64,000 nucleotides of DNA from Limnothrix sp. BL-A-16 (GTDB taxonomy: Bacteria; Cyanobacteriota; Cyanobacteriia; CACIAM-69d). Each line of letters begins with the position of its first letter. The stretch's first letter is position 1. This document shows positions 43,430 through 57,366 of the stretch, in pieces. The position numbers and the translations under genes are program-made. The notes beneath the pieces were generated by a model. The model ran no database searches. It had not been told where the DNA came from and saw nothing but the letters and a program-made list of their open reading frames with translations. The DNA lies in NCBI GenBank assembly GCA_041937175.2, contig CP166615.1, forward strand, positions 576,001-640,000. Direction: 5' to 3'.

Positions 43430-44233
43430 GTGGATTTCAGCGCGATCGCAACGCCAATCACCCAGCAAGCAACCCAACACCCTTGGCTCACGGCCGCGGT
43501 GCTGAACACGCTGCTGCTCACCCTAGTGGCGATCGCCCCCAAAAAACTGCTCACACCGGCCGGCATTGTCCATGCTTGGATTTTGGGTGTGTTGGTGTGG
43601 GGTTGCATGGGCTGGCCGGGCTATGCCGTGGTGGGGTTCTATTTTTTGGCGGGGTCGGCCGTCACTCGGGTGGGTTTGGCCCGCAAGGAAGCCGCTGGCA
43701 TTGCCGAGAAACGATCGGGCGCAAGGGGCCCGGAAAACGTTTGGGGATCGGCCCTTGGCGGGGCCCTTTGTGCCGGGGCGATCGGGCTGTTATCGTTGAT
43801 GCCGGATCAGGCGATCGCCCAAACCTGGCTCCCCCTTCTGAGTTTGGCCTATGCCGCCAGCTTCAGCGCCAAACTCTCCGACACCTGCGCCAGTGAAATT
43901 GGCAAAGCCTATGGCCGGCGAACCTTTTCGGTGATTTCCTTTCAGCCCGTGCCGCCGGGAACCGAAGGAGCCGTCAGCCTGGAAGGAACCCTGGCCGGTT
44001 TGGCCGCCTCGATCGCCCAAGCCCTTGTGGCCTGGGGTGTGGGCTTAATTTCTCCCTTCGGAATTTTGGGATGCGCGATCGCTGCATTCCTGGCTACAAC
44101 AGTGGAAAGTATTGTGGGCGCGACTTGGCAGGAGCAGCAGCCATGGTTAACAAACGAAGTCGTGAACGGTCTGCAAACCCTGCTGGCGGCCCTGCTGGCG
44201 ATCGCGATCGGGTGGCCGACGATCAGCCCCTAG
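43430..44233 (+). CDS. DUF92/TIGR00297 membrane protein (VTE6-like)
   Basis: GIAEKRSGARGPENVWGS, KLSDTCASEIGK, PGTEGAVSLEGT. Confidence 0.85.
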   Translation: MDFSAIATPITQQATQHPWLTAAVLNTLLLTLVAIAPKKLLTPAGIVHAWILGVLVWGCMGWPGYAVVGFYFLAGSAVTRVGLARKEAAGIAEKRSGARGPENVWGSALGGALCAGAIGLLSLMPDQAIAQTWLPLLSLAYAASFSAKLSDTCASEIGKAYGRRTFSVISFQPVPPGTEGAVSLEGTLAGLAASIAQALVAWGVGLISPFGILGCAIAAFLATTVESIVGATWQEQQPWLTNEVVNGLQTLLAALLAIAIGWPTISP

Positions 44234-45168
44234 ACTCGCCCGCCGACCCCAACCCCCGCAGCCTTGGGGCCACGGCCCAAGCCGCGATCGAAAAGCATTG
44301 GGCCAAGGCCGGCCGCCACGAAGCCGCCGTCCTCAAAGATCAGGATCCCGAAGAGTTGCATCAAATGCGTGTGGCCCTGCGACGGCTGCGATCGGCCATG
44401 GTGGGTTTTGCCTCGGCCATTGAGCTGCCCAAACGGGCCAGCGAGCGGGCCGTGGGTCAAGTGGCCAGAATTTTGGGGGAACTGCGCGATTTGGACGTGA
44501 TGGACGAAACCTTGCGCGATCGCTACCTCCAAAACCTACCCCCGGAAGAACAGCCCCTTTTGCAAACGGTTCGCGAAGAGCTGGCCGGCCAGCGCCAAAA
44601 AGCCTTCGGTCGTGTCAGCAAAACCCTACAAAAACGCGAATGGCCCGCCATCAACACGGCCCTTGGGCGTTGGATTGCCCAGCCGCGCCTGCGGCCCGCC
44701 GCCGATTGGCCCGCCGTGGTGGTGGTTCCCGATTTGCTGTTGCCCATTTTGTCCCACTGGTTAATGCATCCCGGCTGGTTGGTGCAAACCGAGGGGCGAT
44801 CGGTCACGGATCTTTCGTTGTTGGAGTGGGCGGTGATCCATGACCTGCGCAAGGTGGCCAAACGGGTGCGCTATCAAATGGCCCTTTTCACCGATTTCTA
44901 TGGCAGTGAATACGAGCGATTGCTCGACGCGATTGGCGATATCCAAACCGTGTTAGGCGATTTGCAAGATATCGCCGTGCTGGAAAACTTTTTGGTAAAA
45001 ACGATCGGGATTCAGTGGGCCACCGATGCGCCCGCCTGGGCTGGTTTGCTGGAGCAACAGCGCGATCGGGCTTGGGAAAACTGGCTGAAGCTCCAGGAGC
45101 AGTTCGATCGCCCCAATCAACGGGAACGGATCCGAGACGTGGTGAATCGCCCCCACCTCAACTCCTAG
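44143..45168 (+). CDS. CHAD domain protein
   Basis: DPEELHQMRVALRRLRS, LGELRDLDV, HDLRK..KR.RY, LGDLQD; GGAG precedes the ATG at 44143 (start uncertain). Confidence 0.85.
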   Translation: MVNKRSRERSANPAGGPAGDRDRVADDQPLDSPADPNPRSLGATAQAAIEKHWAKAGRHEAAVLKDQDPEELHQMRVALRRLRSAMVGFASAIELPKRASERAVGQVARILGELRDLDVMDETLRDRYLQNLPPEEQPLLQTVREELAGQRQKAFGRVSKTLQKREWPAINTALGRWIAQPRLRPAADWPAVVVVPDLLLPILSHWLMHPGWLVQTEGRSVTDLSLLEWAVIHDLRKVAKRVRYQMALFTDFYGSEYERLLDAIGDIQTVLGDLQDIAVLENFLVKTIGIQWATDAPAWAGLLEQQRDRAWENWLKLQEQFDRPNQRERIRDVVNRPHLNS

Positions 45169-45339
45169 AGGATGTCTGAGCAGTTCCCGACCAACGCATC
45201 AGGTCACCGGATCAGCACCACCTGCTCACTCATCAACTCACGGCTACCGCTTCCTTGGGCTATCCTCCACCATGCCACGCAAGTCATGTAGTCCAGTGAG
45301 TCATCTTTCTCAAGGATTCTTCTGCAAGGATTTGAAGTT

Positions 45340-45461
45340 TTGTGGTCAAGTATTTTATAAAATCTTTAAAAAGAGAAACACAAAAGTAAACATCAAGGAT
45401 TGACGTTTGACAGGTCATAGGGACAGCTCTAAGGTGTGTTTAACCTCCGTCTGAATTTTGT
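45340..45461 (+). promoter_or_regulatory. AT-rich putative promoter of the cas operon
   Basis: Sharp AT-rich tract with TTGAC motifs upstream of cas5; position only. Confidence 0.4.
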
Positions 45462-46103
45462 ATGAAAATTCGCCTTTGGGGAGAGCGGGCATTATTTGCC
45501 ATTCCCGCCTATAAGGTTGAAGCGCGTTCTTATCCCATTCCACCACCAACCGCCATTGAAGGGCTGCTGCGAAATCTCTATTGGCATCCGGGTTTTGAGT
45601 GGCGCTTGAATCGAATTGCAGTTAATTGCCCGATCGTCTATGAATCCGTAACCCGAAACATGGTGCAGGACATTGCACCCAGCCAAGAAACCCTGGCAGC
45701 GGGCAAGCGCTACACCATCGAAGACGATCGCACCCAGCGCACCCTATCGCTGTTGCGCAACGTGGACTACACAATCGACTGTGCCCTTTGGCATCCTGAG
45801 CCGATCAAGCAATCGCGCGGCAACCGAATCACGATCGAGCGCCTGCAAAGGGGCCAGCATTGGGCCCAGCCCTATCTGGGCCAGCGGGAATTTACGGCCC
45901 ATTTGGCCTTGCTGCCGCCAGACACCAAGTTGCGGGGCCACCCGACCCTGGGCCGTGAAATGTTGTTGCCTGTTATGCCCCGAGCAATTCGGTTTACCCC
46001 AAAAGGCACAACGGTTGAGTGGTTCCAGCCCACCTTGCGCGACGGCGTTTTGGATCTACGGAACTCTGAGCGACAGGAGAGCAGTGATGCTACAGGAACT
46101 TGA
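45462..46103 (+). CDS. cas5: CRISPR-associated Cas5 (type I-C, Cas5d-like)
   Basis: WGERALF..P.YKVE..SYPIPPPTAIEG...YWHP; QR...LRNVDY.I; PYLGQREF. Confidence 0.88.
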   Translation: MKIRLWGERALFAIPAYKVEARSYPIPPPTAIEGLLRNLYWHPGFEWRLNRIAVNCPIVYESVTRNMVQDIAPSQETLAAGKRYTIEDDRTQRTLSLLRNVDYTIDCALWHPEPIKQSRGNRITIERLQRGQHWAQPYLGQREFTAHLALLPPDTKLRGHPTLGREMLLPVMPRAIRFTPKGTTVEWFQPTLRDGVLDLRNSERQESSDATGT

Positions 46104-47859
46104 CCAGCTCGCCAATTACCTAGAGACACCCGCAGTTCAGGGAGGGCTGCCCCCGATCGGGTACGAAAGCGCCACCGTGGAATTCGCGATCGACCTGAAC
46201 AACAGTTCAATTGTGCCCCTGTATCAAGAACCCGACCCCAAACGCAAATCCACAACCCAACAACTGGGGCGGCGGGTTCTCACCACCATCCGGCTCAGCA
46301 ACCATGCTCCAGCCCTACTGGATGACAAGTTGAAATACATCCTGGGGACGGGTTCCAATGGCCCCAAATGTCAACCGAAGTATCGTGAACTCTTGGGGTT
46401 GTTGCTGTCCAGTGCCGATCCCCCGTTTCCGTGGGCCCCGGCTATTCAGCAGTTGTTGGATTGTCCCCAACTAGCCGAAGCGGCCGCAATCCAAACAGGC
46501 TTGCCCTTGGCAGAGGTCGCCGACAAGCGCTGCCGCTTGCTGTGGGACGGTGAGCCGGTGGTCAACGATCCACAGGTGCGTATTTGGTGGCGCAATCACG
46601 TGCTGGAGAGGGACGGGGGACAGCAGGGGAACTGTTCCATTACTGGACAAACGGGATTAATCGTTAGCAAAACAATCCCAGCAACAGTTAAAGGCATTCC
46701 CGGCGCACAGCTCTCGGGAGCCAAACTGAGTTGCTTTGACAAGCCATCGATGTGTTCTTGGGGGCTTCAGCAAAACGCTAATGCTCCCTTGCTGGCCTCA
46801 GTGGGATTACGCAGTCATGCGGCCTTGCAAGTTCTGATTGAGGACAAGAACCACCACGCCAAACTCGGCAATCAGCTCTGGGTGTTTTGGGGCACGGAAG
46901 GCGAAGGCATCAAGGAAGAAATGTGGCAGGAGCAACCTGCGGGAGCTATGTGGCGCGACCCATCAGCATTCACCCAAATCATTGGGGCTTTTGATGACGC
47001 GACCAAATCGGGCACGCTGCCCCCCCGCAAGCTAGACCGGCCCTTCTTTCTGGCATCCCTGAGGGCCCATGGCGCAAGGATTGCAATCACCCGTTGGGAA
47101 ACCACCACCATTCGCCACATGGTGGATCGGCTGCAATGGTTTCGATCGGCCCAATGTCCGCATCAACGTTGGCGGCCCTTGGCCCTGTGGCAACTCCGGC
47201 AAGTGGCTTTTCACAAAGCACCCAAGCCCCCGGAAACCGCCTACATCGATGATGCACTGCTGGCCTGTGCGCTACAAAACGCCCCCTTACCCGATCAATA
47301 TGCCCAGCGGCTTTTGGATCGGCTTTGTGCAGAAGGCGACCTGGAAACCTACTGGAATCCCAAAAAAGTGGCTTGGGTTTTGCTCCAGCGGATCCAAGCA
47401 CTGGCCCTATACCTGGCATCTCGCAACATCAACATTCCTATGGACAATCAATCGTTACCGTTTGCTTTGGGGCAAGCCTGTTTTTGGATGGCCCAGGCCC
47501 AAGCCCGGGCCCAAAAGCGTCCCTTGGCAGCGACCAATGTGGTGCAAGCGCTGCGAGGAATTTTGCAGTCACCTTCCCGAGTTGCTGGGTTGTTCCCGAA
47601 TTTTTTCAACCATTTGAAAGAACTGGGATCTGTCCATGATCTTTACCTGGAGCGATTTTCACGGGCGATCGCCGCAACGGGTACAACGGGCGACTGTTTC
47701 CCCGAGAGTTTTTCCGTGGAAGACCAGGCTTTGTTCATGGTGGGGTTTGCCATGGCCTGTGCGGACAACGCGGAAAACCGCCACGCGGCCGCCCAGAAAA
47801 AACAAGCGGCCCAAGCTGAGATCGCTGACGACTCTGAAATTTTTGATCTGGAGGATTAA
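46087..47859 (+). CDS. cas8c: Type I-C large subunit Cas8c/Csd1 (divergent)
   Basis: MLQEL start; D..KYILG; CSITG; IKG.PGAQ..GAKL.CFDK....SWG..Q..NAP; C-terminal Q..F..G; lies between cas5 and cas7. Confidence 0.8.
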   Translation: MLQELDQLANYLETPAVQGGLPPIGYESATVEFAIDLNNSSIVPLYQEPDPKRKSTTQQLGRRVLTTIRLSNHAPALLDDKLKYILGTGSNGPKCQPKYRELLGLLLSSADPPFPWAPAIQQLLDCPQLAEAAAIQTGLPLAEVADKRCRLLWDGEPVVNDPQVRIWWRNHVLERDGGQQGNCSITGQTGLIVSKTIPATVKGIPGAQLSGAKLSCFDKPSMCSWGLQQNANAPLLASVGLRSHAALQVLIEDKNHHAKLGNQLWVFWGTEGEGIKEEMWQEQPAGAMWRDPSAFTQIIGAFDDATKSGTLPPRKLDRPFFLASLRAHGARIAITRWETTTIRHMVDRLQWFRSAQCPHQRWRPLALWQLRQVAFHKAPKPPETAYIDDALLACALQNAPLPDQYAQRLLDRLCAEGDLETYWNPKKVAWVLLQRIQALALYLASRNINIPMDNQSLPFALGQACFWMAQAQARAQKRPLAATNVVQALRGILQSPSRVAGLFPNFFNHLKELGSVHDLYLERFSRAIAATGTTGDCFPESFSVEDQALFMVGFAMACADNAENRHAAAQKKQAAQAEIADDSEIFDLED

Positions 47860-47862
47860 GCC

Positions 47863-48750
47863 ATGAGTCAAGACACTGAAATGCACTTGGATCCAACTTT
47901 ACGCCACGATGCGGTGTTGCTGTTTGACTGTGAACGGGGAAATCCGAATGGCGACCCAGACGCAGATAATCAACCCCGCATTGATCCCTACTCGGGGCGC
48001 GGGTTGGTGAGCGATGCTTGCGTGAAGCGGAAGCTGCGCGATTACGTGGCGATGGTGGCCAGCGATCGCCCTGAATACAAAATCCTGATTGAGCAGGGTG
48101 CGGTCATCAACAACCAGATTGAGCGCGGCTATATCGAGAGCGGGGCCGAAACCAGCGGTTCCAAAAAACCCAAGGAAAATTCCCCAGAACACAGGGCCCA
48201 ACAAGACCAGGTACGAGACTGGTTTCGTAAGAATTTCTTTGATGTGCGGATGTTTGGGGCGGTGTTGTCCACGGGGCGCAAGGTGGGTCAGGTGTTCGGG
48301 CCGGTGCAGGTGGCTTGGGCCATGTCTCAGGATCCAATTCGACCGTTGCGATCGACCCTAACGCGCTGTGCGGCCACGGAGGAAAAGGATGGTAAGGAAA
48401 ACAAAACCATGGGGGCGAAGTGGCTGTTGCCCTATGCGCTCTATCGCACGGAGGTGACCTACAACCCCTATCGCGATCGGGCGAGTGAGTATGTGACGAG
48501 GGAGGATTTGCAATTTCTGTGGGATGGATTGTTGCGGGCCTGGGATTTTGATCGTTCGGCGGCACGGGGCACGATGGCCTGTCGAGGGTTGTATATCTTC
48601 ACGCACCGGGCAAAGTTTGGGAATGCACCGGCCCATCAGCTTTTTGAGTCGGTGACGGTGACTCGCGTGGCGGACAAACCCCTATCGTTTCGGGATTATG
48701 CGGTGCAGGTGAGTGAACCACCGGAGGGGGTGAAGTTGACGGCGCTATGA
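47863..48750 (+). CDS. cas7: Type I-C Cas7/Csd2
   Basis: FDCERGNPNGDPD..N.PR.D, SDACVKRK.RDY, FFDVRMFGAV, TMGAK, GNAPAH.LF. Confidence 0.93.
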   Translation: MSQDTEMHLDPTLRHDAVLLFDCERGNPNGDPDADNQPRIDPYSGRGLVSDACVKRKLRDYVAMVASDRPEYKILIEQGAVINNQIERGYIESGAETSGSKKPKENSPEHRAQQDQVRDWFRKNFFDVRMFGAVLSTGRKVGQVFGPVQVAWAMSQDPIRPLRSTLTRCAATEEKDGKENKTMGAKWLLPYALYRTEVTYNPYRDRASEYVTREDLQFLWDGLLRAWDFDRSAARGTMACRGLYIFTHRAKFGNAPAHQLFESVTVTRVADKPLSFRDYAVQVSEPPEGVKLTAL

Positions 48751-48965
48751 GCGCGAAGGGGAAGTGCTGTTTTTGGGTGATCGCCTGAATCCCAAGCGGA
48801 ACAACGAGTTCAGGGCAATTTCTGAAATTTCGGTTCGCGATTCTTGCGCTGTCTGAGTTTGGGCGCTGAATCGCTGGTTCAGTTGCCTGGTTTTGACCTG
48901 GTTTGGCTGGGATCGCGAATCGTGCCTCTCAACTACTGATGTTGCAAGACTTTGGAAGCCAAGCA
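48751..48965 (+). promoter_or_regulatory. CRISPR leader
   Basis: 215-bp non-coding stretch between the cas7 stop and the first repeat, on the 5' side of repeats ending in ATTGAAAC. Confidence 0.7.
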
Positions 48966-50905
48966 GCAAAATCCCCCGCTCCGGCGGGGCCGCAATTGAA
49001 ACGGTGTGGACATGAACGGCAACCCCGTGATCGCACGCAAAATCCCCCGCTCCGGCGGGGCCGCAATTGAAACCACTCAGGAAATCGTGTTCCCAAATCC
49101 CTCTGGTGAGCAAAATCCCCCGCTCCGGCGGGGCCGCAATTGAAACCGTGTCGGTACAGTTGGCAATCCACTCGCCCAATCCGCAAAATCCCCCGCTCCG
49201 GCGGGGCCGCAATTGAAACCGTATCGGTGACGCGGTAGCTAGCCCCCCATTTGCGGGCAAAATCCCCCGCTCCGGCGGGGCCGCAATTGAAACCACCAAT
49301 CCGGACAAAGCAGATCCCTGGTATGTGGGCAAAATCCCCCGCTCCGGCGGGGCCGCAATTGAAACAATGCCGCCATCCATGCCCACCGATTTGGCCCCGA
49401 GTGCAAAATCCCCCGCTCCGGCGGGGCCGCAATTGAAACACCGGGACAGCCAAGCAAGAGCTGGCCCAAGGGCTGCAAAATCCCCCGCTCCGGCGGGGCC
49501 GCAATTGAAACTGGCTCAATTTCCTGGAAACCTTTGCCACACCGGGCACTGCAAAATCCCCCGCTCCGGCGGGGCCGCAATTGAAACTTGCTGGCTGGCT
49601 GATGGCTCGATCGCCTCATCGCAAAATCCCCCGCTCCGGCGGGGCCGCAATTGAAACTTCGGCGGTGGGGGCGGGGGCGGCGATTGGGGCGGTGCAAAAT
49701 CCCCCGCTCCGGCGGGGCCGCAATTGAAACAGCCCTTAGTCTGGTCTCCAGATTGAGGGCTTTTTGAGCAAAATCCCCCGCTCCGGCGGGGCCGCAATTG
49801 AAACGCTTTTTAACGGTTTTTGGAGAGGGTCGCAAGTGACGCAAAATCCCCCGCTCCGGCGGGGCCGCAATTGAAACCCTATCAAGCTCCCGCCCTGGCA
49901 TGAGAAGCGCCTAGCAAAATCCCCCGCTCCGGCGGGGCCGCAATTGAAACATCGTCAGTGAGCAGGTTTTTGCTGTTGGTGGTCATGGTGCAAAATCCCC
50001 CGCTCCGGCGAGGCCGCAATTGAAACGTGCCCAACTCGGGGCCATTCGCGTTGCGTTTTAATGCAAAATCCCCCGCTCCGGCGGGGCCGCAATTGAAACA
50101 GAGTCAGCTAAAAGAGTTCTGCACCTCAGTGCTATGCAAAATCCCCCGCTCCGGCGGGGCCGCAATTGAAACACTCAGGGCGTTTGCGAGCCGGGGGACT
50201 CGGTGCGGCAAAATCCCCCGCTCCGGCGGGGCCGCAATTGAAACATCCTTATCTGATTGCGACGGGACGATCATGTAACCGCAAAATCCCCCGCTCCGGC
50301 GGGGCCGCAATTGAAACCCACGTAACCCCGGCCAGCTCGGTAACTTTCCCGGTCAGCAAAATCCCCCGCTCCGGCGGGGCCGCAATTGAAACACGATGGA
50401 TTGTCAGTCCATGAGATATACAGGGCAGGCAAAATCCCCCGCTCCGGCGGGGCCGCAATTGAAACACCAGCCAACTGACTCGCGGCGACTACCTCTACGA
50501 CGCAAAATCCCCCGCTCCGGCGGGGCCGCAATTGAAACCCATCCAAGCGATCGCGCCGCCGTCACCGACACCTGCAAAATCCCCCGCTCCGGCGGGGCCG
50601 CAATTGAAACATGTCGCGCCAACTGGGCGGCTTGAACTGTACAAGCAAAATCCCCCGCTCCGGCGGGGCCGCAATTGAAACGATCTCGGGGAACCCGCCC
50701 GCACCTCGGGCCGCTTGCCCGCAAAATCCCCCGCTCCGGCGGGGCCGCAATTGAAACTAGGTAGACAGAAAACCGTTTGTGGAAGGTGTCATGCAAAATC
50801 CCCCGCTCCGGCGGGGCCGCAATTGAAACAGCCAGGGTCTTGATCCGCTCGGCCGCCTGATTGAGCGCGCAAAATCCCCCGCTCCGGCGGGGCCGCAATT
50901 GAAAC
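48966..50905 (+). CRISPR. CRISPR array: 27 repeats of 37 bp (GCAAAATCCCCCGCTCCGGCGGGGCCGCAATTGAAAC) and 26 unique spacers of about 33-39 bp
   Basis: Repeats counted directly; internal hairpin CCCCGC-TCCG-GCGGGG; one variant repeat (G>A) starting at 49990. Confidence 0.98.
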
Positions 50906-50915
50906 ATAACAACCT

Positions 50916-53000
50916 ATGAAAAAAACACCGATTAAAACATCTCAACCCCTCGCCAGACCCAACCAATTACTAACCACCCATCTTCAAGAAACCGCCAACT
51001 TTTCAAAACAAATCATTGCTCCCCATTCCCCCCCTTCCCTCCAATCGATCGCCTACCTCATTGGCGCATTACACGACCTTGGCAAAGCCAATCCTCAATG
51101 GCAAGCCAAACTGAATCGCCCAAACTCCGCCTTGCACGATCGCGTTCCCCACGCCGCCCACGGCGCATGGGTTGCCCTTGAACAGCTCAACCGAAATCCT
51201 GAAGGAGCCACCGCCAAAGCCATTGCCCACTGCATCGCTGCCCACCACACGCGCTTACGAAATTGGGGCGATCGGGAAGGAAAAATCTACGAAACCGAAA
51301 CCGTTGCTCAAACCTGTTGGGATCTTTTAAGACAACTGGATTCTGAGCTTCACGAATCCATCTTGCAAGCAGCCGCCAACAGCCATGAACTCCCCCACAA
51401 CAGCCAGGGTGAAATGACCGTTCGCTTGCTCTATTCCGCCCTCATTGAGGCCGATCGCTGCTCTGCGGCCGCAATTCAACCCGCCGCCTTTCCCGCTTCC
51501 TTGCTGCTTCAGCCTTCTCCTCCCGCCCCCGTTTGCCAACCTAAAGATCAATGGCGCAATTTATTTGCACAGCATTGCCAGCGATTAGCTGAACAACCGC
51601 CCGGCTGGTATCGAATTACTGGCCCCTGTGGTGTTGGCAAAACCCAAGCTTCCGCCCAAGCCATCGCTCAACATATTCAACACAATCAGATGCGCGGGCT
51701 AATCTTTGTGGGGCCGCTGAAATCCGTCATTGAACAGACCGCCCATCACTATCGCCGCTGGTTTGGCGCTGAACAGGTGCTGGAACATCACGGCGATTTT
51801 GATAGCAGTCAAGATGCCGACTATCGCGATCGCTGCGCCCGTTGGAATAGTCCCGTCATCTGCACAAGCGGCGCACAGTTCTTTGATTCACTGCTGAGCG
51901 ATCGAGCAGGGCGTTGCCGCAAGCTTCAGCAATTAATTGGCCGAGCCATTGTGATTGATGAGGCTCAATATTTACCACCTCATTTGGCTGTTCCTGTTCT
52001 GTCAGCCCTCAACACTTTGGTTCAACAATTTGGTTGCACAGTTGTGTTGATGTCAGCCACAAATCCCGCCTTTTCTGGGGTTGCAAAGGTACTGGAAGAG
52101 GCCGGCAGTCCGCTGCCACCTTGGGTTGATGTGGTGCAACCGGATGAAGTCAAGTCTCTGTTTGCTGCCATGACCACAACGAGCTGGCGCTTGGGCGGCC
52201 CCATGAACTGGAACGCGATCGCGAAAGATGTGCAGTCTGCGGGTTGCACTTCCGTGGCCACGATTGTAAATACAACCGCCCTAGCCCGAACTGCCGCAAT
52301 TCAACTGCAAGAATCATTGGCCGATTGGACAATTGCCCACCTTTCGGCGCGGATGTATCCCCAACATCGTGGCCAAACGATTCAGGCAGTACGCCAGGTA
52401 ATTCAACGGGGCGATCGCATTTTGCTGGTCGGTACTCAGGTTATTGAGGCCGGCGTTGATCTGGATTTTCAGCGTCTCTACACCCAAATGGCTCCGTTAG
52501 ACTCCCTGTTGCAGCGGGCGGGGCGATGCGATCGCAATGGTTGTCATCCTGGCTCTGTCGTCACCATTTTTGAGACGGGCCAGGCTTTTGATGTGCGCCA
52601 AACAGATATTGCGGTCACTCGCCCACTGCTGGAGAAAGCTATTGCATCCACCGATGGAATGCTTGAGGCGATCGATCAGTTCTATAGGACTATCTATAGT
52701 CGCGATCGGATCCAAACGGGAATTGAGATCGAGCGTCTGCGTCATTACTGGCAATTTGGTGATGTGGCTGACCGAGCTAAAACGATTGAAGAGGGCGATC
52801 GCATTCGGGTGGTCATTCCTAATTCAGATCTCGATCTGGCCAAGCTATCCAATCAAAAATTAACCTGGAAAGATTGGCGAGAAATCAGTCGCTACTCAGT
52901 TTCTATCCCCCTCAAATATCAAAAAAGTATCGAATTTTGTGCCAATGGCTTGCCCGTCTGGCGCGGTGGATATGACCAATTTGGTTGGGTTGATCCTTAG
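50916..53000 (+). CDS. cas3: Cas3 HD nuclease-helicase
   Basis: THL; LHDLGKA; IAAHH; EADR; Walker A GPCGVGKT; DEAQ; MSAT; TQVIEAGVD.DF; QRAGRCDR. Confidence 0.93.
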   Translation: MKKTPIKTSQPLARPNQLLTTHLQETANFSKQIIAPHSPPSLQSIAYLIGALHDLGKANPQWQAKLNRPNSALHDRVPHAAHGAWVALEQLNRNPEGATAKAIAHCIAAHHTRLRNWGDREGKIYETETVAQTCWDLLRQLDSELHESILQAAANSHELPHNSQGEMTVRLLYSALIEADRCSAAAIQPAAFPASLLLQPSPPAPVCQPKDQWRNLFAQHCQRLAEQPPGWYRITGPCGVGKTQASAQAIAQHIQHNQMRGLIFVGPLKSVIEQTAHHYRRWFGAEQVLEHHGDFDSSQDADYRDRCARWNSPVICTSGAQFFDSLLSDRAGRCRKLQQLIGRAIVIDEAQYLPPHLAVPVLSALNTLVQQFGCTVVLMSATNPAFSGVAKVLEEAGSPLPPWVDVVQPDEVKSLFAAMTTTSWRLGGPMNWNAIAKDVQSAGCTSVATIVNTTALARTAAIQLQESLADWTIAHLSARMYPQHRGQTIQAVRQVIQRGDRILLVGTQVIEAGVDLDFQRLYTQMAPLDSLLQRAGRCDRNGCHPGSVVTIFETGQAFDVRQTDIAVTRPLLEKAIASTDGMLEAIDQFYRTIYSRDRIQTGIEIERLRHYWQFGDVADRAKTIEEGDRIRVVIPNSDLDLAKLSNQKLTWKDWREISRYSVSIPLKYQKSIEFCANGLPVWRGGYDQFGWVDP

Positions 53001-53025
53001 CTGACTGAGGCCGATCACCTGTCAA

Positions 53026-53562
53026 TCAGCGGGTCAAAGGAGCAGCACCATACCAACCTTGGAGATAGGTTTGCAGCATGGCGGCGGCCGTCGTGCGGCT
53101 GGGGGCCCGATCGGGCATAGACCACCACCCCCAAGCGTGATCGGGCGATCGCCAAAAGGCCTGGTGGGACAGGGGTGGATCGGCCCAAAACTGCGCCCGC
53201 CCGGCCCCCAACCAAGCGGAACTGTGGTGCGTCCATTGATCGTGGCTGAACCGATAAATTGGCAGTCCTCCCGGCAGCGCCACCCCCCAACCATCCCAGG
53301 CAAACACCGCCCGCACTCGCCCACCGCGCCGCTGCCAAGCCTGAGCGGCTCCCAAGGCCGCCACCACTCCCGCACTGAAGCCAATTAGCCCGATCGCCCG
53401 TTGGGGATCGATCTCCCGCAGCGCCTCCAGCACCCGATCGCCCCGATAGGTAGCCTCCCAAATCACCAAAGGTTGCGGCCAGGCGGGTTTCCAGGTGGCT
53501 GCTAAAAACTGTTCCGTCGCCGATCGATCCGCAAAGCCGGGACAAATGCAACAAATCGGCAT
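53026..53562 (-). CDS. Hypothetical alpha/beta hydrolase-like protein
   Basis: ICPG, GFSAGVV (nucleophile elbow-like), DGWG, SHD.WTH. Confidence 0.65.
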   Translation of the reverse strand: MPICCICPGFADRSATEQFLAATWKPAWPQPLVIWEATYRGDRVLEALREIDPQRAIGLIGFSAGVVAALGAAQAWQRRGGRVRAVFAWDGWGVALPGGLPIYRFSHDQWTHHSSAWLGAGRAQFWADPPLSHQAFWRSPDHAWGWWSMPDRAPSRTTAAAMLQTYLQGWYGAAPLTR

Positions 53563-53960
53563 GGCGGCCTTGGTTCGTTGGGTCTGATCCCTCTGGATTG
53601 GAAGATCGTGAGCGAGTTGACCGTTATTTTGAGGGTCATGAATTTGAGAACCAGAGGCTTGATTTTCCCCATGGAGACAATTCCAAGAATTCCAATATTT
53701 TGCAGACCTATTTAAATTTTTCATCGAAATTGTTACCCAATTTTTGATTGATCTTTGCGTTTAGTGACCAAGCATTACAAAAAGATAAAAGTCCTGATCA
53801 AGATCTCCAAAGAAATTTGTCTTCTTCTCAAGAATTTCCCTTAACTGATGCCGATTGACCAACTGAAATCTGATTCCGCTTTCATAATAGAAATGAATCC
53901 CCCCATGAGGCATTTGCTGTGGCTGCGTCTTCCCAAAAGGCTGAAGGTCAATCCCCCCTG

Positions 53961-55211
53961 ATGGCAACCCAAATCAGCGCGATCGACCCATCGGAAGCCG
54001 AAACTGGGCCCGGTGGTGATCGGGTGGCGGTTTTGCTGATGGGCTATGGCGAGGTGGAATCCTATGCGGATTTTGCCAATTACAACGAACAGGCTTTGAA
54101 CCTGTTAACTGCCAAGTTTGCTCCGGTTCCTCAATGGGTTTATCCGCCTTTGGCAAAATTATTGGCGGCTTTTGATTTGCATGAGTGGAGTCACCAGCAC
54201 GGTCAGTTTATTTCCCCCCACAATGCCATTTTTGAGCGTCAACGATCGGGCATTGAGCAAGCACTCAAACAACGTTGGGGCGATCGCGTCTCGGTGTTTA
54301 AGGCGTTTAACTTTTGTCGTCCCCATTTGCCAGAGCAAGTTTTGGCAGAAATTCGCGATCGGGGATTTAGCAAGTTACTGATTTATCCCTTACTGGTGGT
54401 GGACTCGATTTTCACCAGTGGAATTGCCATTGAGCAGGTCAACCGGGCCTTGAGTCAGTTAACCGATGGCGACACCCATTGGGTGCGATCAATGCGCTAT
54501 TTCCCGTCGTTTCATGACCAGGCTAGCTATATTCAACTGCTGGCGAAGTTGGTGAGCGAAAAAATTGATCGGGACTGGCGATCTCACTTCTTGCCGTCGC
54601 AAATTGGCATTGTGCTGCTGAATCATGGTTGTCCCCACGAAGCCAAGGGGTTTGTGTCAGGAATTGCTGAAAGCCAAGCCCTATATGAATCGGTGCGTCG
54701 GGAGCTGATCACTCGCTATCCCCTGATTTCGATCGGCTGGCTCAATCACGATACGCCCATGATCGATTGGACACAGCCCAATGCTCAATTGGCGGCTCGC
54801 AATTTAATTGAACTGGGAGCCAAAGCAATTTTGATGGCCCCGATCGGGTTTGCCACCGAAAACCATGAAACCTTACTGGATGTGGACCATATTTTCCTAG
54901 CGCTCCAGCGTCAATATCCTGAGGTGGTTTATCAACAATTGCCCTGCGTAAATGATCACCCTGAGTTTTTGGCCATGGCGGCGGATTGGGCTGATCCGCT
55001 GATTACGGAGTTATTGGCAGAAACCAGCGCTGTAATTCACTTCGCCGGGTTCGATCGCTCCAGCCTTGATTCCGCGCATCATCACCACCAAAGCCATAGC
55101 CATGATCATGGTCATGATCACAGTCACGATCACGGTCATGCTCATGGTGACAATCATAGCCATCACGGCCATTCCCATGATCACGCTCATCATCAACATT
55201 CCCATCATTAA
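53961..55211 (+). CDS. Ferrochelatase-family chelatase with a His-rich C-terminal tail
   Basis: VLLMGYG, ISP, NHGCP, PIGFATENHETLLD, CVNDHP; about 45-aa His-rich tail; no CAB domain. Confidence 0.8.
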   Translation: MATQISAIDPSEAETGPGGDRVAVLLMGYGEVESYADFANYNEQALNLLTAKFAPVPQWVYPPLAKLLAAFDLHEWSHQHGQFISPHNAIFERQRSGIEQALKQRWGDRVSVFKAFNFCRPHLPEQVLAEIRDRGFSKLLIYPLLVVDSIFTSGIAIEQVNRALSQLTDGDTHWVRSMRYFPSFHDQASYIQLLAKLVSEKIDRDWRSHFLPSQIGIVLLNHGCPHEAKGFVSGIAESQALYESVRRELITRYPLISIGWLNHDTPMIDWTQPNAQLAARNLIELGAKAILMAPIGFATENHETLLDVDHIFLALQRQYPEVVYQQLPCVNDHPEFLAMAADWADPLITELLAETSAVIHFAGFDRSSLDSAHHHHQSHSHDHGHDHSHDHGHAHGDNHSHHGHSHDHAHHQHSHH

Positions 55212-55221
55212 GGTTTCAAAT

Positions 55222-56025
55222 TCAAGGTTTCAAATTCAGCGATAGTTGCAGAATTGAAGCGGGATGATTCGGTGTGGGAATTGGCTCGGGACTGGTGGTT
55301 TGGGCTGGGCAATATTGTTTGTAATGACACTGATCGCAATGGGTTCCGGGATTGGGTTCCCAGGCGCGATCGGTTCGTAATCGCTGGGCCAAGTCTGCAA
55401 TCACCGCCTGGGCTGCGATCAACCGTTCTTCAGTGACGGGAATTCGCACCGATTCCCCGGGCCGCAAAAAAATGAGGTTGATGTATTTCAGCTCCCGTTC
55501 CCATTGTTGATTGATGGCGATCGCGTAGAGGCCCACTTGCATCGTGAGCTGATCAAAATCTGGCTCCACAAATTGCCGTGAGGTTTTGTACTCAATTAAT
55601 TCGAGGGAGTCTAAATCAAACCAATCGAGGCGATCGAGCCGACCCGTGAGGGCAAATTCCAAGTCATTGATTTGTAATCGACCTTGAATTTTGGCCTCCG
55701 TGGCCAGGGGTTTGAGGAAGCGATCGCTCGGTTCAATCCAGTGATGGAAATAGCGCACCAAAATATCGTAGCCCTCGGCAATTTGGCGCTCCGTGAGACC
55801 AGCGGTTTCTTGAGTCCAGCAAGCATCAATCCAACTGAGTCCTGGTTTTTGGGGATAGCTATAGTCCCAATCGCGGTAAATTCGCGTGAGTGCCCCATGG
55901 AGCGATCGCCCTAGGGCCGCGCCGCCAAAACCCGCCGTCGGAATTTTATATTCATAGCGAAATTGATATCGAGCGGGACAGGTTTGGTAGGTGGTTAATT
56001 TGGCCGGCGAGAGTCGATAGGACAT
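55222..56025 (-). CDS. PD-(D/E)XK RecB-like nuclease with four Cys
   Basis: LSP.KL..Y..CP; G..LH; GRLDRLD; IEYKT; Q..LY; C-terminal CDQC....CP. Confidence 0.82.
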   Translation of the reverse strand: MSYRLSPAKLTTYQTCPARYQFRYEYKIPTAGFGGAALGRSLHGALTRIYRDWDYSYPQKPGLSWIDACWTQETAGLTERQIAEGYDILVRYFHHWIEPSDRFLKPLATEAKIQGRLQINDLEFALTGRLDRLDWFDLDSLELIEYKTSRQFVEPDFDQLTMQVGLYAIAINQQWERELKYINLIFLRPGESVRIPVTEERLIAAQAVIADLAQRLRTDRAWEPNPGTHCDQCHYKQYCPAQTTSPEPIPTPNHPASILQLSLNLKP

Positions 56026-56175
56026 TTGGCTTCAGAGGGCTTCAGAAAAACCGGGAATTTGTGACCGCAGAATCTACCGCAGAATCTATAGACTAAAAAG
56101 AATTGGGAGCCGATGCTTAATTTCGGTTAGATTTGCTTAGATTTAAGACATAACTTCAATTTTAAGTCCTCCAAA

Positions 56176-57366
56176 ATGGCCATGGGAATGCGAGCGATCG
56201 GGTTAATGAGCGGCACCTCCGTTGATGGAATCGATGCGGCATTGGTGGAACTGTCGGGAACGGAAACAGACTTGGAAGTGAAGCTACTGCGGTCTGAAAC
56301 CTTTGACTATCCAGCGGCCTTGCGATCACAAATTTTGGCGGTTTGTGCCGGTGAATCCCTATCCATGGCGGCCATGGCTCAGTTGGACGACGCGATCGCC
56401 CGGGAATTTGCGGCGGCCGCCAAAACGATCCAAACGGCACAACCGGATCCAGAACCCATCCGCTTCATTGGTTCCCACGGCCAAACGGTGTTCCATCGCC
56501 CACCCCAAACGGCCAACGAGCAACCCCTGGGCTACAGCTTGCAGTTGGGTCGCGGCAGCGCGATCGCCCACTGGAGCGGCATCACCACCGTCAGCAACTT
56601 TCGGGTGGGTGACTTGGCCATGGGCGGCCAGGGTGCGCCGTTGGTGCCTCGGGTGGATGCTTACCTGTTGGGTGATGAGCAGGAATGTCGCTGTGTGCAA
56701 AATATTGGCGGCATTGGCAATGTGACCTATTTACCGGCCCGGCGGGGTTTTGCCAGTTTGACGGACTGGGAGGGGGCCGTTTGGGGTTGGGATACGGGGC
56801 CGGGCAATGTGTTGGTGGATTTGGCGGTGCAACACCTGACGGACGGGGCCCAAACCTTCGATCGCGATGGAGCCTGGGCGGCCCAAGGACAGATTTCAGA
56901 TCCCCTGGTGACCCAGTGGCTGGCGGATCCCTTCTTTAGTCAGGAACCACCCAAGTCAACCGGACGCGAGCACTTTGGCCCGGACTGGTTGGCCCGCAGC
57001 CGCCAAGCGGCGATCGCCCTGGATCTGTCCGATGCCGATTGGTTAGCCAGCCTCACGGAACTGACGGCCCGTTCCATTGCCGACAGTTACCGCAACCACT
57101 TGCCCCAACTGCCCGATCGGGTCTTGGTCTGCGGGGGTGGCAGTCGCAATCGCACCCTCTGGGCCCGTCTGCAACATCATTTGGGAGCGATCCCACTGGA
57201 AACCACGGATCAATGGGGACTCTGTGCCAGCAGCAAGGAGGCGATCGCCTTTGCCGTTTTGGGCTACTGGCGACTGCTCGATCGCCCCGGCAACCTGCCC
57301 GCCGCCACGGGAGCACGGCAATCCGTACCCCTCGGCGAGGTGTGGCCCGCCCCCAGCGCAGGGTAA
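56176..57366 (+). CDS. anmK: Anhydro-N-acetylmuramic acid kinase
   Basis: [56 protein letters not shown]. Confidence 0.95.

Follow-up and report, generated by a model that had tools for sequence, protein, structure and literature searches.

A CRISPR array that runs into cas3

The 64,000-nucleotide (nt) stretch of Limnothrix sp. BL-A-16 DNA studied here (contig CP166615.1, positions 576,001–640,000; hereafter the window, whose own numbering is used throughout) carries a CRISPR-Cas locus in which three effector genes, a leader, a CRISPR array and cas3 follow one another on the plus strand. Judged by its gene content, the locus is a minimal variant of type I-C with the order cas5c-cas8c-cas7-leader-array-cas3, and only 10 nt separate the array's final repeat from the start codon of cas3. 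The features are listed below, with protein lengths in amino acids (aa).

45407–45435, plus strand: candidate cas operon promoter, TTGACA (45407–45412), 17 nt, TAAGGT (45430–45435)
45462–46103, plus strand: cas5c, 213 aa
46087–47859, plus strand: cas8c/csd1, 590 aa, with AGGAGAG before the ATG (chosen start)
47863–48750, plus strand: cas7/csd2, 295 aa, its ATG preceded at 8 nt by GGAGGA
48751–48965, plus strand: CRISPR leader, 215 nt between cas7 and the first repeat
48913–48921, plus strand: leader motif TCGCGAATC, within the leader
48966–50905, plus strand: CRISPR array, 27 repeats (37 nt) alternating with 26 spacers (33–39 nt)
50869–50905, plus strand: terminal repeat, no mismatch to the consensus
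50906–50915, plus strand: linker ATAACAACCT, 10 nt between the terminal repeat and the cas3 ATG, predicted unpaired
50916–53000, plus strand: cas3, 694 aa, HD nuclease and SF2 helicase

The array was delimited with a repeat finder and a script of our own, and 26 of its 27 repeats were identical to the consensus GCAAAATCCCCCGCTCCGGCGGGGCCGCAATTGAAAC, the sole variant being the 15th copy at 49990. The sequence-only reading of this DNA had called the last repeat non-degenerate and had described it as followed by ATAACAACCT and then by the cas3 ATG at 50916, and both observations were confirmed. An in-frame TAA at 50907–50909 makes a longer cas3 open reading frame impossible, and no alternative ATG, GTG or TTG lies ahead of the conserved ARP motif (residues 13–15). 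The start also agrees with an N-terminal alignment in which six full-length homologues begin 4–12 residues before this motif. The product scored 122 bits with TIGR01587 (cut-off 102) and 86 bits with TIGR01596 (cut-off 43), matched Cas3_HD, DEAD and Cas3-like_C_2 of Pfam, and keeps the Walker A, DExx, QxxGRxxR and HD motifs in the Cas3 alignment.

A terminator scan returned no plus-strand terminator from 47917 to 51778, and a consensus scan gave no promoter-like site near the junction, its sole promoter-like match being at 49160–49189. None of the motifs GGAG, GAGG and AGGA was present within 20 nt upstream of the cas3 ATG. The earlier statements that the junction has neither a terminator nor a Shine-Dalgarno (SD) sequence were thus borne out. 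The missing SD does not hold as a special cue of this junction, because the cas3 starts of the relatives are also without one and the trait belongs to the cas3 lineage. The predicted RNA fold is essentially open from the repeat hairpin to beyond the AUG, and the low GC content of the cas3 start is unremarkable, its first 45 nt ranking 341 among 2040 windows within the gene.

Orientation of the array and its leader

The array is judged to be oriented towards cas3 from the repeat end, the leader motif and the terminators on the minus strand. Read on the plus strand, the repeat ends in ATTGAAAC with a 13-nt overhang after the stem, and the predicted RNA fold recovered its hairpin CCCCGC/GCGGGG as a 6-bp stem with a tetraloop. 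The terminator scan found nothing on the plus strand between cas7 and the first repeat, where the leader motif is located. Of the 12 other loci with a visible leader, 11 (L108, L213–L217, L154, L230, L232, L219 and L245) have variants of TCGCGCAAATC similarly far ahead of the first repeat; the motif is not evident in L220. The leader was placed on the cas7 side of the array because this motif, homologous to that in the relatives' leaders, lies there. Among the 23 terminator-like matches, 13 were repeats read on the minus strand (48974–50816), made of the GC hairpin and GATTTTGC; antisense transcription of the array would be blocked by them. The motif (T)TCGCGCAAATC lies ~45–60 nt before the first repeat across all the gene layouts described below except in L220, and may function as a promoter element or as an integration-host site.

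The perfect terminal repeat was another of the earlier cues. The comparison showed that it is not special, since perfect last repeats are common among related arrays and were found in five of the nine comparators with a visible end (L213, L214, L216, L219 and L245). In L213, L214, L216 and L245 the perfect last repeat is followed by 1–3 tandem partial copies of the repeat 3′ end, which contain the handle without the hairpin, e.g. ATTGAGGATTGAAAC; the window array has none of these.

The 26 spacers are all mutually different, and they gave no full match elsewhere in the genome and no self-target. The repeat is confined to this array, with 27 of its 27 genome matches located here. The final 20 nt of the last spacer (50849–50868) match genome positions C1:69142–69161 exactly (E 1e-4), beside a small repeat cluster, and probably represent a shared short genomic repeat rather than a target.

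Upstream effector genes and missing genes

The type I-C assignment made earlier was upheld by the presence of the Cas5c, Cas8c and Cas7/Csd2 effector families. Cas7 scored 249.8 bits with TIGR02589 (cut-off 182.25) and 271.7 bits with Pfam Cas7. Cas8c matched Pfam Cas_Csd1 with 182 bits (cut-off 27) over profile positions 3–552 of 559, and its sole NCBIfam match was TIGR01863 (E 2.9e-45) with 154.9 bits, below the equivalog cut-off of 218.65. The best NCBIfam family of Cas5 was TIGR01876 Cas5c (E 3e-18) with 66.7 bits, under the cut-off of 85, and Pfam Cas_Cas5d gave 48 bits, above its cut-off of 23; residues 2–197 align with the solved Cas5c of D. vulgaris (7KHA, 8DEX) at E 2e-26. All four cas reading frames are intact and full-length against the family models.

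The cas8c ATG lies 17 nt ahead of the cas5 stop (overlap 46087–46103), which together with its AGGAGAG suggests translational coupling. Strong SDs precede cas8c and cas7, and none precedes cas5 and cas3. The candidate operon promoter is located 26 nt before the cas5 ATG in an AT-rich gap of 293 nt after a CHAD gene. This TTGACA/TAAGGT pair was found by eye and is unlisted in the consensus scan, with the second hexamer matching at only three of six positions.

Cas1 was not found in the whole genome with PF01867 and TIGR00287, and Cas6 was not found there with PF01881, TIGR01877 and PF10040, models to which the control genomes responded. The genome, without a Cas1 or Cas6 match, contains three further CRISPR arrays of two repeat types on contig C1, at 2129144–2132442 (46 repeats), 3261978–3263843 (25) and 4391303–4394165 (40). 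A 267-aa PD-(D/E)XK nuclease is encoded on the minus strand at 55222–56025, 2.2 kb downstream of cas3; it matched PDDEXK_1 at E 3e-30, and its similarity to Cas4 is weak and below the NCBIfam cut-off. The Rfam search of 44000–56500 returned no CRISPR-repeat family or other RNA, and its one match, to a long non-coding RNA (E 0.12), is spurious.

Positions of cas3 in related loci

The window Cas3 has no close kin, its best relatives being 35–39% identical, with their Cas7 at ~54%. A single-protein scan of genome contigs gave no close relatives, and alignment-based scans returned mostly canonical I-C loci. The apparent array of L012 was rejected as non-CRISPR, being made of 21/81-nt tandem coding repeats.

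The same minimal system occurs in four cyanobacterial layouts, none of which has cas4, cas1 or cas2 in the locus. Layout A (cas5-cas8-cas7-array-cas3) is that of the window, G211 and G125. Layout B (cas5-cas8-cas7-cas3-array) is present in G375 and G432, and G436 shows the cas7-cas3 adjacency. In layout C, cas3 is divergent from cas5-cas8-cas7-leader-array and separated from cas5 by ~30–40 nt. It was found in L213–L218, L108, L154, L029 and L030 and in six of seven further Nostocaceae-type loci, these coming from a survey of 389 genomes of the family, 11 of which had a match. Layout D (cas3-cas5-cas8-cas7, all on one strand) was found in L220, L233 and L246–L248. L215 and L028 are one Anabaena record, and L251/L030 and L253/L029 are probably duplicates too.

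Among 401 genomes of the class, 28 gave Cas3 matches with E values of 1e-30 or better, and three of them show layout A. Our survey took in 196 loci that matched Cas3; in the 165 that extended 300 nt or more upstream of it, only the G211 locus had an array end within ~20 nt of the estimated cas3 start. The sequence-only reading had called for a survey of other array-cas3 junctions, and it yielded an analogous junction in G211 and a variant in G125 with a gene in between. In G211, a terminal repeat with three mismatches is followed by CCAATAGACAAA and by an ATG after a gap of 12 nt, all within a single contig; another ATG, located 33 nt past the repeat, is the better fit to the N-termini of the homologues. 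The G211 array is split across two contig ends that together hold all 17 repeat copies, and we infer that it is continuous across them. In G125, an array of 24 repeats, the last degenerate with six mismatches, is followed on the same strand by a gene for a 201-aa Uma2-family protein, 19 nt and cas3. This gene (PF05685, putative endonuclease; L232 6272–6877) is on the cas3 strand. This independently evolved second case, in which the genes of both G211 and G125 are intact, shows the layout to be viable.

Five similar metagenome contigs (L158, L159, L161, L162 and L166) have an array ~60–90 nt upstream of cas3; in these the last repeat is degenerate and cas3 has its own SD. In L031, L046, L053 and L068 arrays lie 340–480 nt upstream of cas3.

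Origin of the junction

A maximum likelihood tree of 38 Cas3 sequences with 200 bootstrap trees placed the window Cas3 inside the layout-C clade with 100/100 support, as sister to the Nostocaceae-type loci and with two further layout-C loci outside this pair. G211 and G125 clustered with layout B (100/98), and the three layout-A sequences formed one clade in 0 of the 200 bootstrap trees. The end branches of these three are long (2.76 for the window, 2.85 and 1.49 for the other two; median 0.24), so that their placement is less sure; long-branch attraction would tend to join the layout-A sequences rather than separate them. On this tree, layout A arose twice independently among cyanobacteria, once in the lineage of the window and once in that of G211 and G125. 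Since the nearest relatives of the window all have a divergent cas3 and the window is nested within them, its junction is derived.

The 10 nt before the ATG bear traces of the earlier arrangement. The window has ATAACAACCT where L108 has GTAACAACGT (8 of 10 identical) and L214 has GATAACACAAA, and TAACAAC also precedes the cas3 ATG in a relative. By this likeness, the linker is retained native 5′-proximal cas3 sequence, and as these bases match the cas3-proximal bases of the relatives, the former promoter region has been left behind. The relatives' gap of 30–40 nt between cas5 and cas3 means that short or absent leaders are normal for this cas3. The novelty of the junction is that the upstream sequence is now spacer and repeat, the former control region having stayed behind. 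The argument that there is no room for a promoter accordingly holds for the 10-nt gap and fails as a distinction, because the relatives likewise have only ~30–40 nt between the two genes.

The simplest history would start from an ancestor of layout C whose locus was rearranged locally. If the block that stretches from the array end almost to cas3 were inverted, with breakpoints at the array end and 10 nt before the cas3 ATG, the window order would result exactly. A word comparison found no inverted repeat of at least 8 nt, shared by the junction and the region upstream of cas5, that might have mediated such an inversion. Synteny with the Anabaena locus L028 through neighbouring VOC/glyoxalase genes was considered and dropped, the identity being only 29% over 48 residues.

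Expression of cas3

The array points to cas3, nothing lies between them and the relatives' promoter is elsewhere, so co-transcription is the simplest source of cas3 mRNA. We therefore consider it probable, with considerable room for doubt, that cas3 transcripts arise by read-through from the array and are translated independently of an SD, and that the mRNA carries a CRISPR RNA (crRNA) handle if the last repeat is cut. The locus would be one transcription unit, cas5c-cas8c-cas7-leader-CRISPR (27 repeats)-cas3, in which RNA polymerase would read through the array from a leader promoter and probably also from a promoter before cas5. Translation would start without an SD from an A-rich unstructured region, as in the relatives. 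If the terminal repeat were cut, the cas3 mRNA would be the 3′ product and would have a repeat-derived handle of ~11–13 nt with a 5′-OH, then 10 nt, then the AUG. The earlier interpretation thus stands in its I-C type, array orientation and co-transcription as the simplest source; the perfect last repeat and the missing SD that it pointed out are traits of the family rather than adaptations to the junction.

As described in the excerpted text of PMC8524198, Cas5c cleaves the repeat at its stem base, leaving an 11-nt 5′ handle with a 5′-OH; it recognises the cut site with the downstream handle, and occupies the handle in Cascade. In the window, the cutter could be Cas5, a host RNase or none, and translation from the uncut polycistronic RNA is possible. 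RNase E reportedly processes the crRNAs of a type III system in Synechocystis.

Several observations weigh against this proposal. Among 29 aligned Cas5c sequences, the window Cas5 alone has Arg-Gly in place of an otherwise invariant Lys and the residue after it, a Lys whose neighbour in the other 28 is His, Tyr, Phe, Arg or Ala. The catalytic triad of S. mutans Cas5c is Tyr, Lys and His in the portion of PMC8524198 that deals with it. Judged from the GKH motif in the D. vulgaris protein, the Arg-Gly column would correspond to the published catalytic Lys-His. The window protein keeps the Tyr before a conserved Trp and would depart from the published triad, which weakens the assumption that Cas5 cuts. 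Three models found no Cas6 in the genome, and the 13 nt from the hairpin to the repeat end differ from the canonical 11 nt. In addition, 1.9 kb of untranslated array ahead of cas3 could attenuate transcription, the long Cas3 branch could mean relaxed constraint, and the position of cas3 is fluid among the relatives, with four layouts and no demonstrated conservation of a regulatory logic. The only public RNA-labelled run that contained the stretch (0.21 of sampled words) assembled into five short contigs inside cas3, all of low depth, and a second, doubtful run (0.10 of sampled words) gave one. Neither produced a contig over 50700–51021, and they are uninformative on transcription or 5′ ends.

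The gene might instead have a transcription start of its own that was made by the junction, with a weak −10-like element such as AAACAT (50902–50907) and a leaderless or near-leaderless mRNA requiring neither array transcription nor repeat cleavage. Cyanobacterial promoters often lack a −35 element, and the short cas5-cas3 gap of the relatives implies very short cas3 leaders with promoters partly buried in the neighbours. In the window, L108, L214, L216 and L213 the ATG is preceded at 4–10 nt by TAACA or TAAAT, which could be the remnant of a −10 element. We nevertheless hold such a start to be rather unlikely. The consensus scan found no site for it, the −35 position falls within the GC-rich hairpin, AAACAT recurs after other repeats (three spacers start with AT) and is hence not specific to the junction, and G211 has no comparable motif. 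The chance is slim that the locus is a decaying or frozen remnant, in which cas3 was severed from its promoter, Cas3 is poorly or not made and the layout is functionless. A genome rated 100% complete and lacking Cas1 and Cas6, the loss of the invariant Lys from Cas5, the second longest branch of the tree, and an identity to the closest relatives of 35–37% for Cas3 and 53–55% for Cas7 (other pairs at similar Cas7 identity keep 35–46% in Cas3) would all fit decay. Set against this, L154 matches the divergence ratio; the four genes are intact, the Cas3 motifs are retained, the repeats are almost uniform with every spacer different, and G211 and G125 share the layout. The junction itself is real, and that repeat collapse or a mis-join placed cas3 beside the array is extremely improbable. 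Repeat-rich arrays often break assemblies, as the split array of G211 illustrates; the present assembly, however, consists of two contigs, unique sequence (the last spacer and the cas3 start) flanks a single 37-nt repeat, the linker is homologous to genuine cas3 upstream sequence, and an analogous junction lies inside one G211 contig.

A different kind of alternative, which spells out the regulatory idea of the sequence-only reading, concerns what the handle would do. Cas5c might stay on the handle of the cas3 mRNA, with Cas7 and Cas8c covering the AUG, as Cascade assembles along the first 30–40 nt and the AUG lies 10 nt past the handle. Subunits free of crRNAs would in this way repress or stabilise the cas3 mRNA, making the supply of nuclease depend on crRNA maturation. 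By inference alone, this would be compatible with read-through of the array and an attractive extension of it; as an explanation in its own right we find it improbable. According to the available part of PMC8524198, Cas5c binds the cut site and handle and nucleates Cascade there, and the available part of PMC10651486 reports that solitary repeat RNAs capture Cas6f and Cas7f into aberrant complexes. The AUG falls within the stretch that a crRNA spacer would occupy, and the short gap is seen again in G211 (12 or 33 nt). The 10-nt gap, however, was set by a rearrangement breakpoint in native cas3 bases and shows no sign of selection on spacing, an intervening gene of 606 nt is tolerated in G125, the catalytic dyad of the window Cas5 is altered, and every array yields a trailing handle-bearing RNA without a known role. 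To the bolder form of this idea we give a similarly small chance: a chimaera of crRNA 5′ end and mRNA, through which surplus Cas5c, Cas7 and Cas8c would set Cas3 synthesis by competition with crRNAs, evolved independently in two lineages.

Significance of the locus

How Cas3 dosage is matched to the supply of Cascade and crRNA is poorly understood, and excess Cas3 is costly. The window offers a natural locus whose nuclease gene is hardly expressible except via the CRISPR array, a second lineage has the same layout, and the junction is directly testable. The locus can thus serve as a test bed for whether crRNA processing also yields an mRNA and whether a handle on an mRNA matters. A compact four-gene I-C variant without adaptation genes and with cas3 in four positions is also useful for classification and for designing minimal Cas3 editors.

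Comparison with known systems

In canonical type I-C systems, as in D. vulgaris, B. halodurans and S. mutans, the order is cas3-cas5c-cas8c-cas7-cas4-cas1-cas2-array. The window shares with them the four effector families, the absence of Cas6, a GC hairpin, the ATTGAAAC 3′ end and a single Cas3 with fused HD and helicase. It differs in having no cas4, cas1 and cas2 in the locus, in the array lying between cas7 and cas3, in Arg-Gly at the Lys-His/Tyr position of Cas5, and in a repeat of 37 nt with 13 nt past the stem, against 32 nt and 11 nt. For the I-C repeat, the accessible text of PMC8524198 gives a length of ~32 nt, a stem of 7 bp and a 3′ overhang of 11 nt that terminates in ATTGAAA(C/T).

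The closest relatives belong to the cyanobacterial I-C variant with divergent cas3 (Anabaena sp. FACHB-1237, L028/L215; L213, L214, L216–L218 and L108). This variant has the same cas5-cas8-cas7-leader-array block, 37-nt repeats ending in GATTGAAAC and the leader motif, and it also lacks adaptation genes in the locus and an SD at the cas3 start. Its cas3 lies on the opposite strand upstream of cas5, whereas that of the window is behind the array and shares its strand. G211 and G125 resemble the window in the order cas5-cas8-cas7-leader-array-cas3. They differ from it in their repeats and in protein identity (Cas3 28–31%, Cas7 ~26% or lower), and form a separate clade whose sisters have cas5-cas8-cas7-cas3-array; their terminal repeats are degenerate.

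No report of a cas reading frame starting a few bases past a terminal repeat was found in a literature search that left most subscription journals and supplements uncovered. In a type I-E variant of Corynebacterium diphtheriae, according to the part of PMC12231136 at hand, an array lies between cas3 and cse1, which is another subtype and another position. A parallel is offered by the CreR/crlRNA mini-arrays near cas3 or cas8 (PMC10120712; bioRxiv 10.1101/2023.03.10.532045), in that a repeat-derived RNA adjoining a cas gene could tune its expression through Cascade subunits. Those RNAs direct Cascade to promoter DNA with a spacer that is partly complementary to it, beside a protospacer-adjacent motif. 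Such elements consist of a stand-alone degenerate repeat pair and a short spacer that partly matches a cas promoter, an arrangement that the window does not have. When the junction (50851–50960) was compared with 44901–45470, the best exact match was the 8-nt TATGAAAA, found at both start codons; the comparison is a weak one, based on words of at least 8 nt and one candidate target region (cas5 upstream). Unlike the repeats of CreR/crlRNA, that of the window closes a full array, and the mechanism considered here is protein binding to the mRNA itself.

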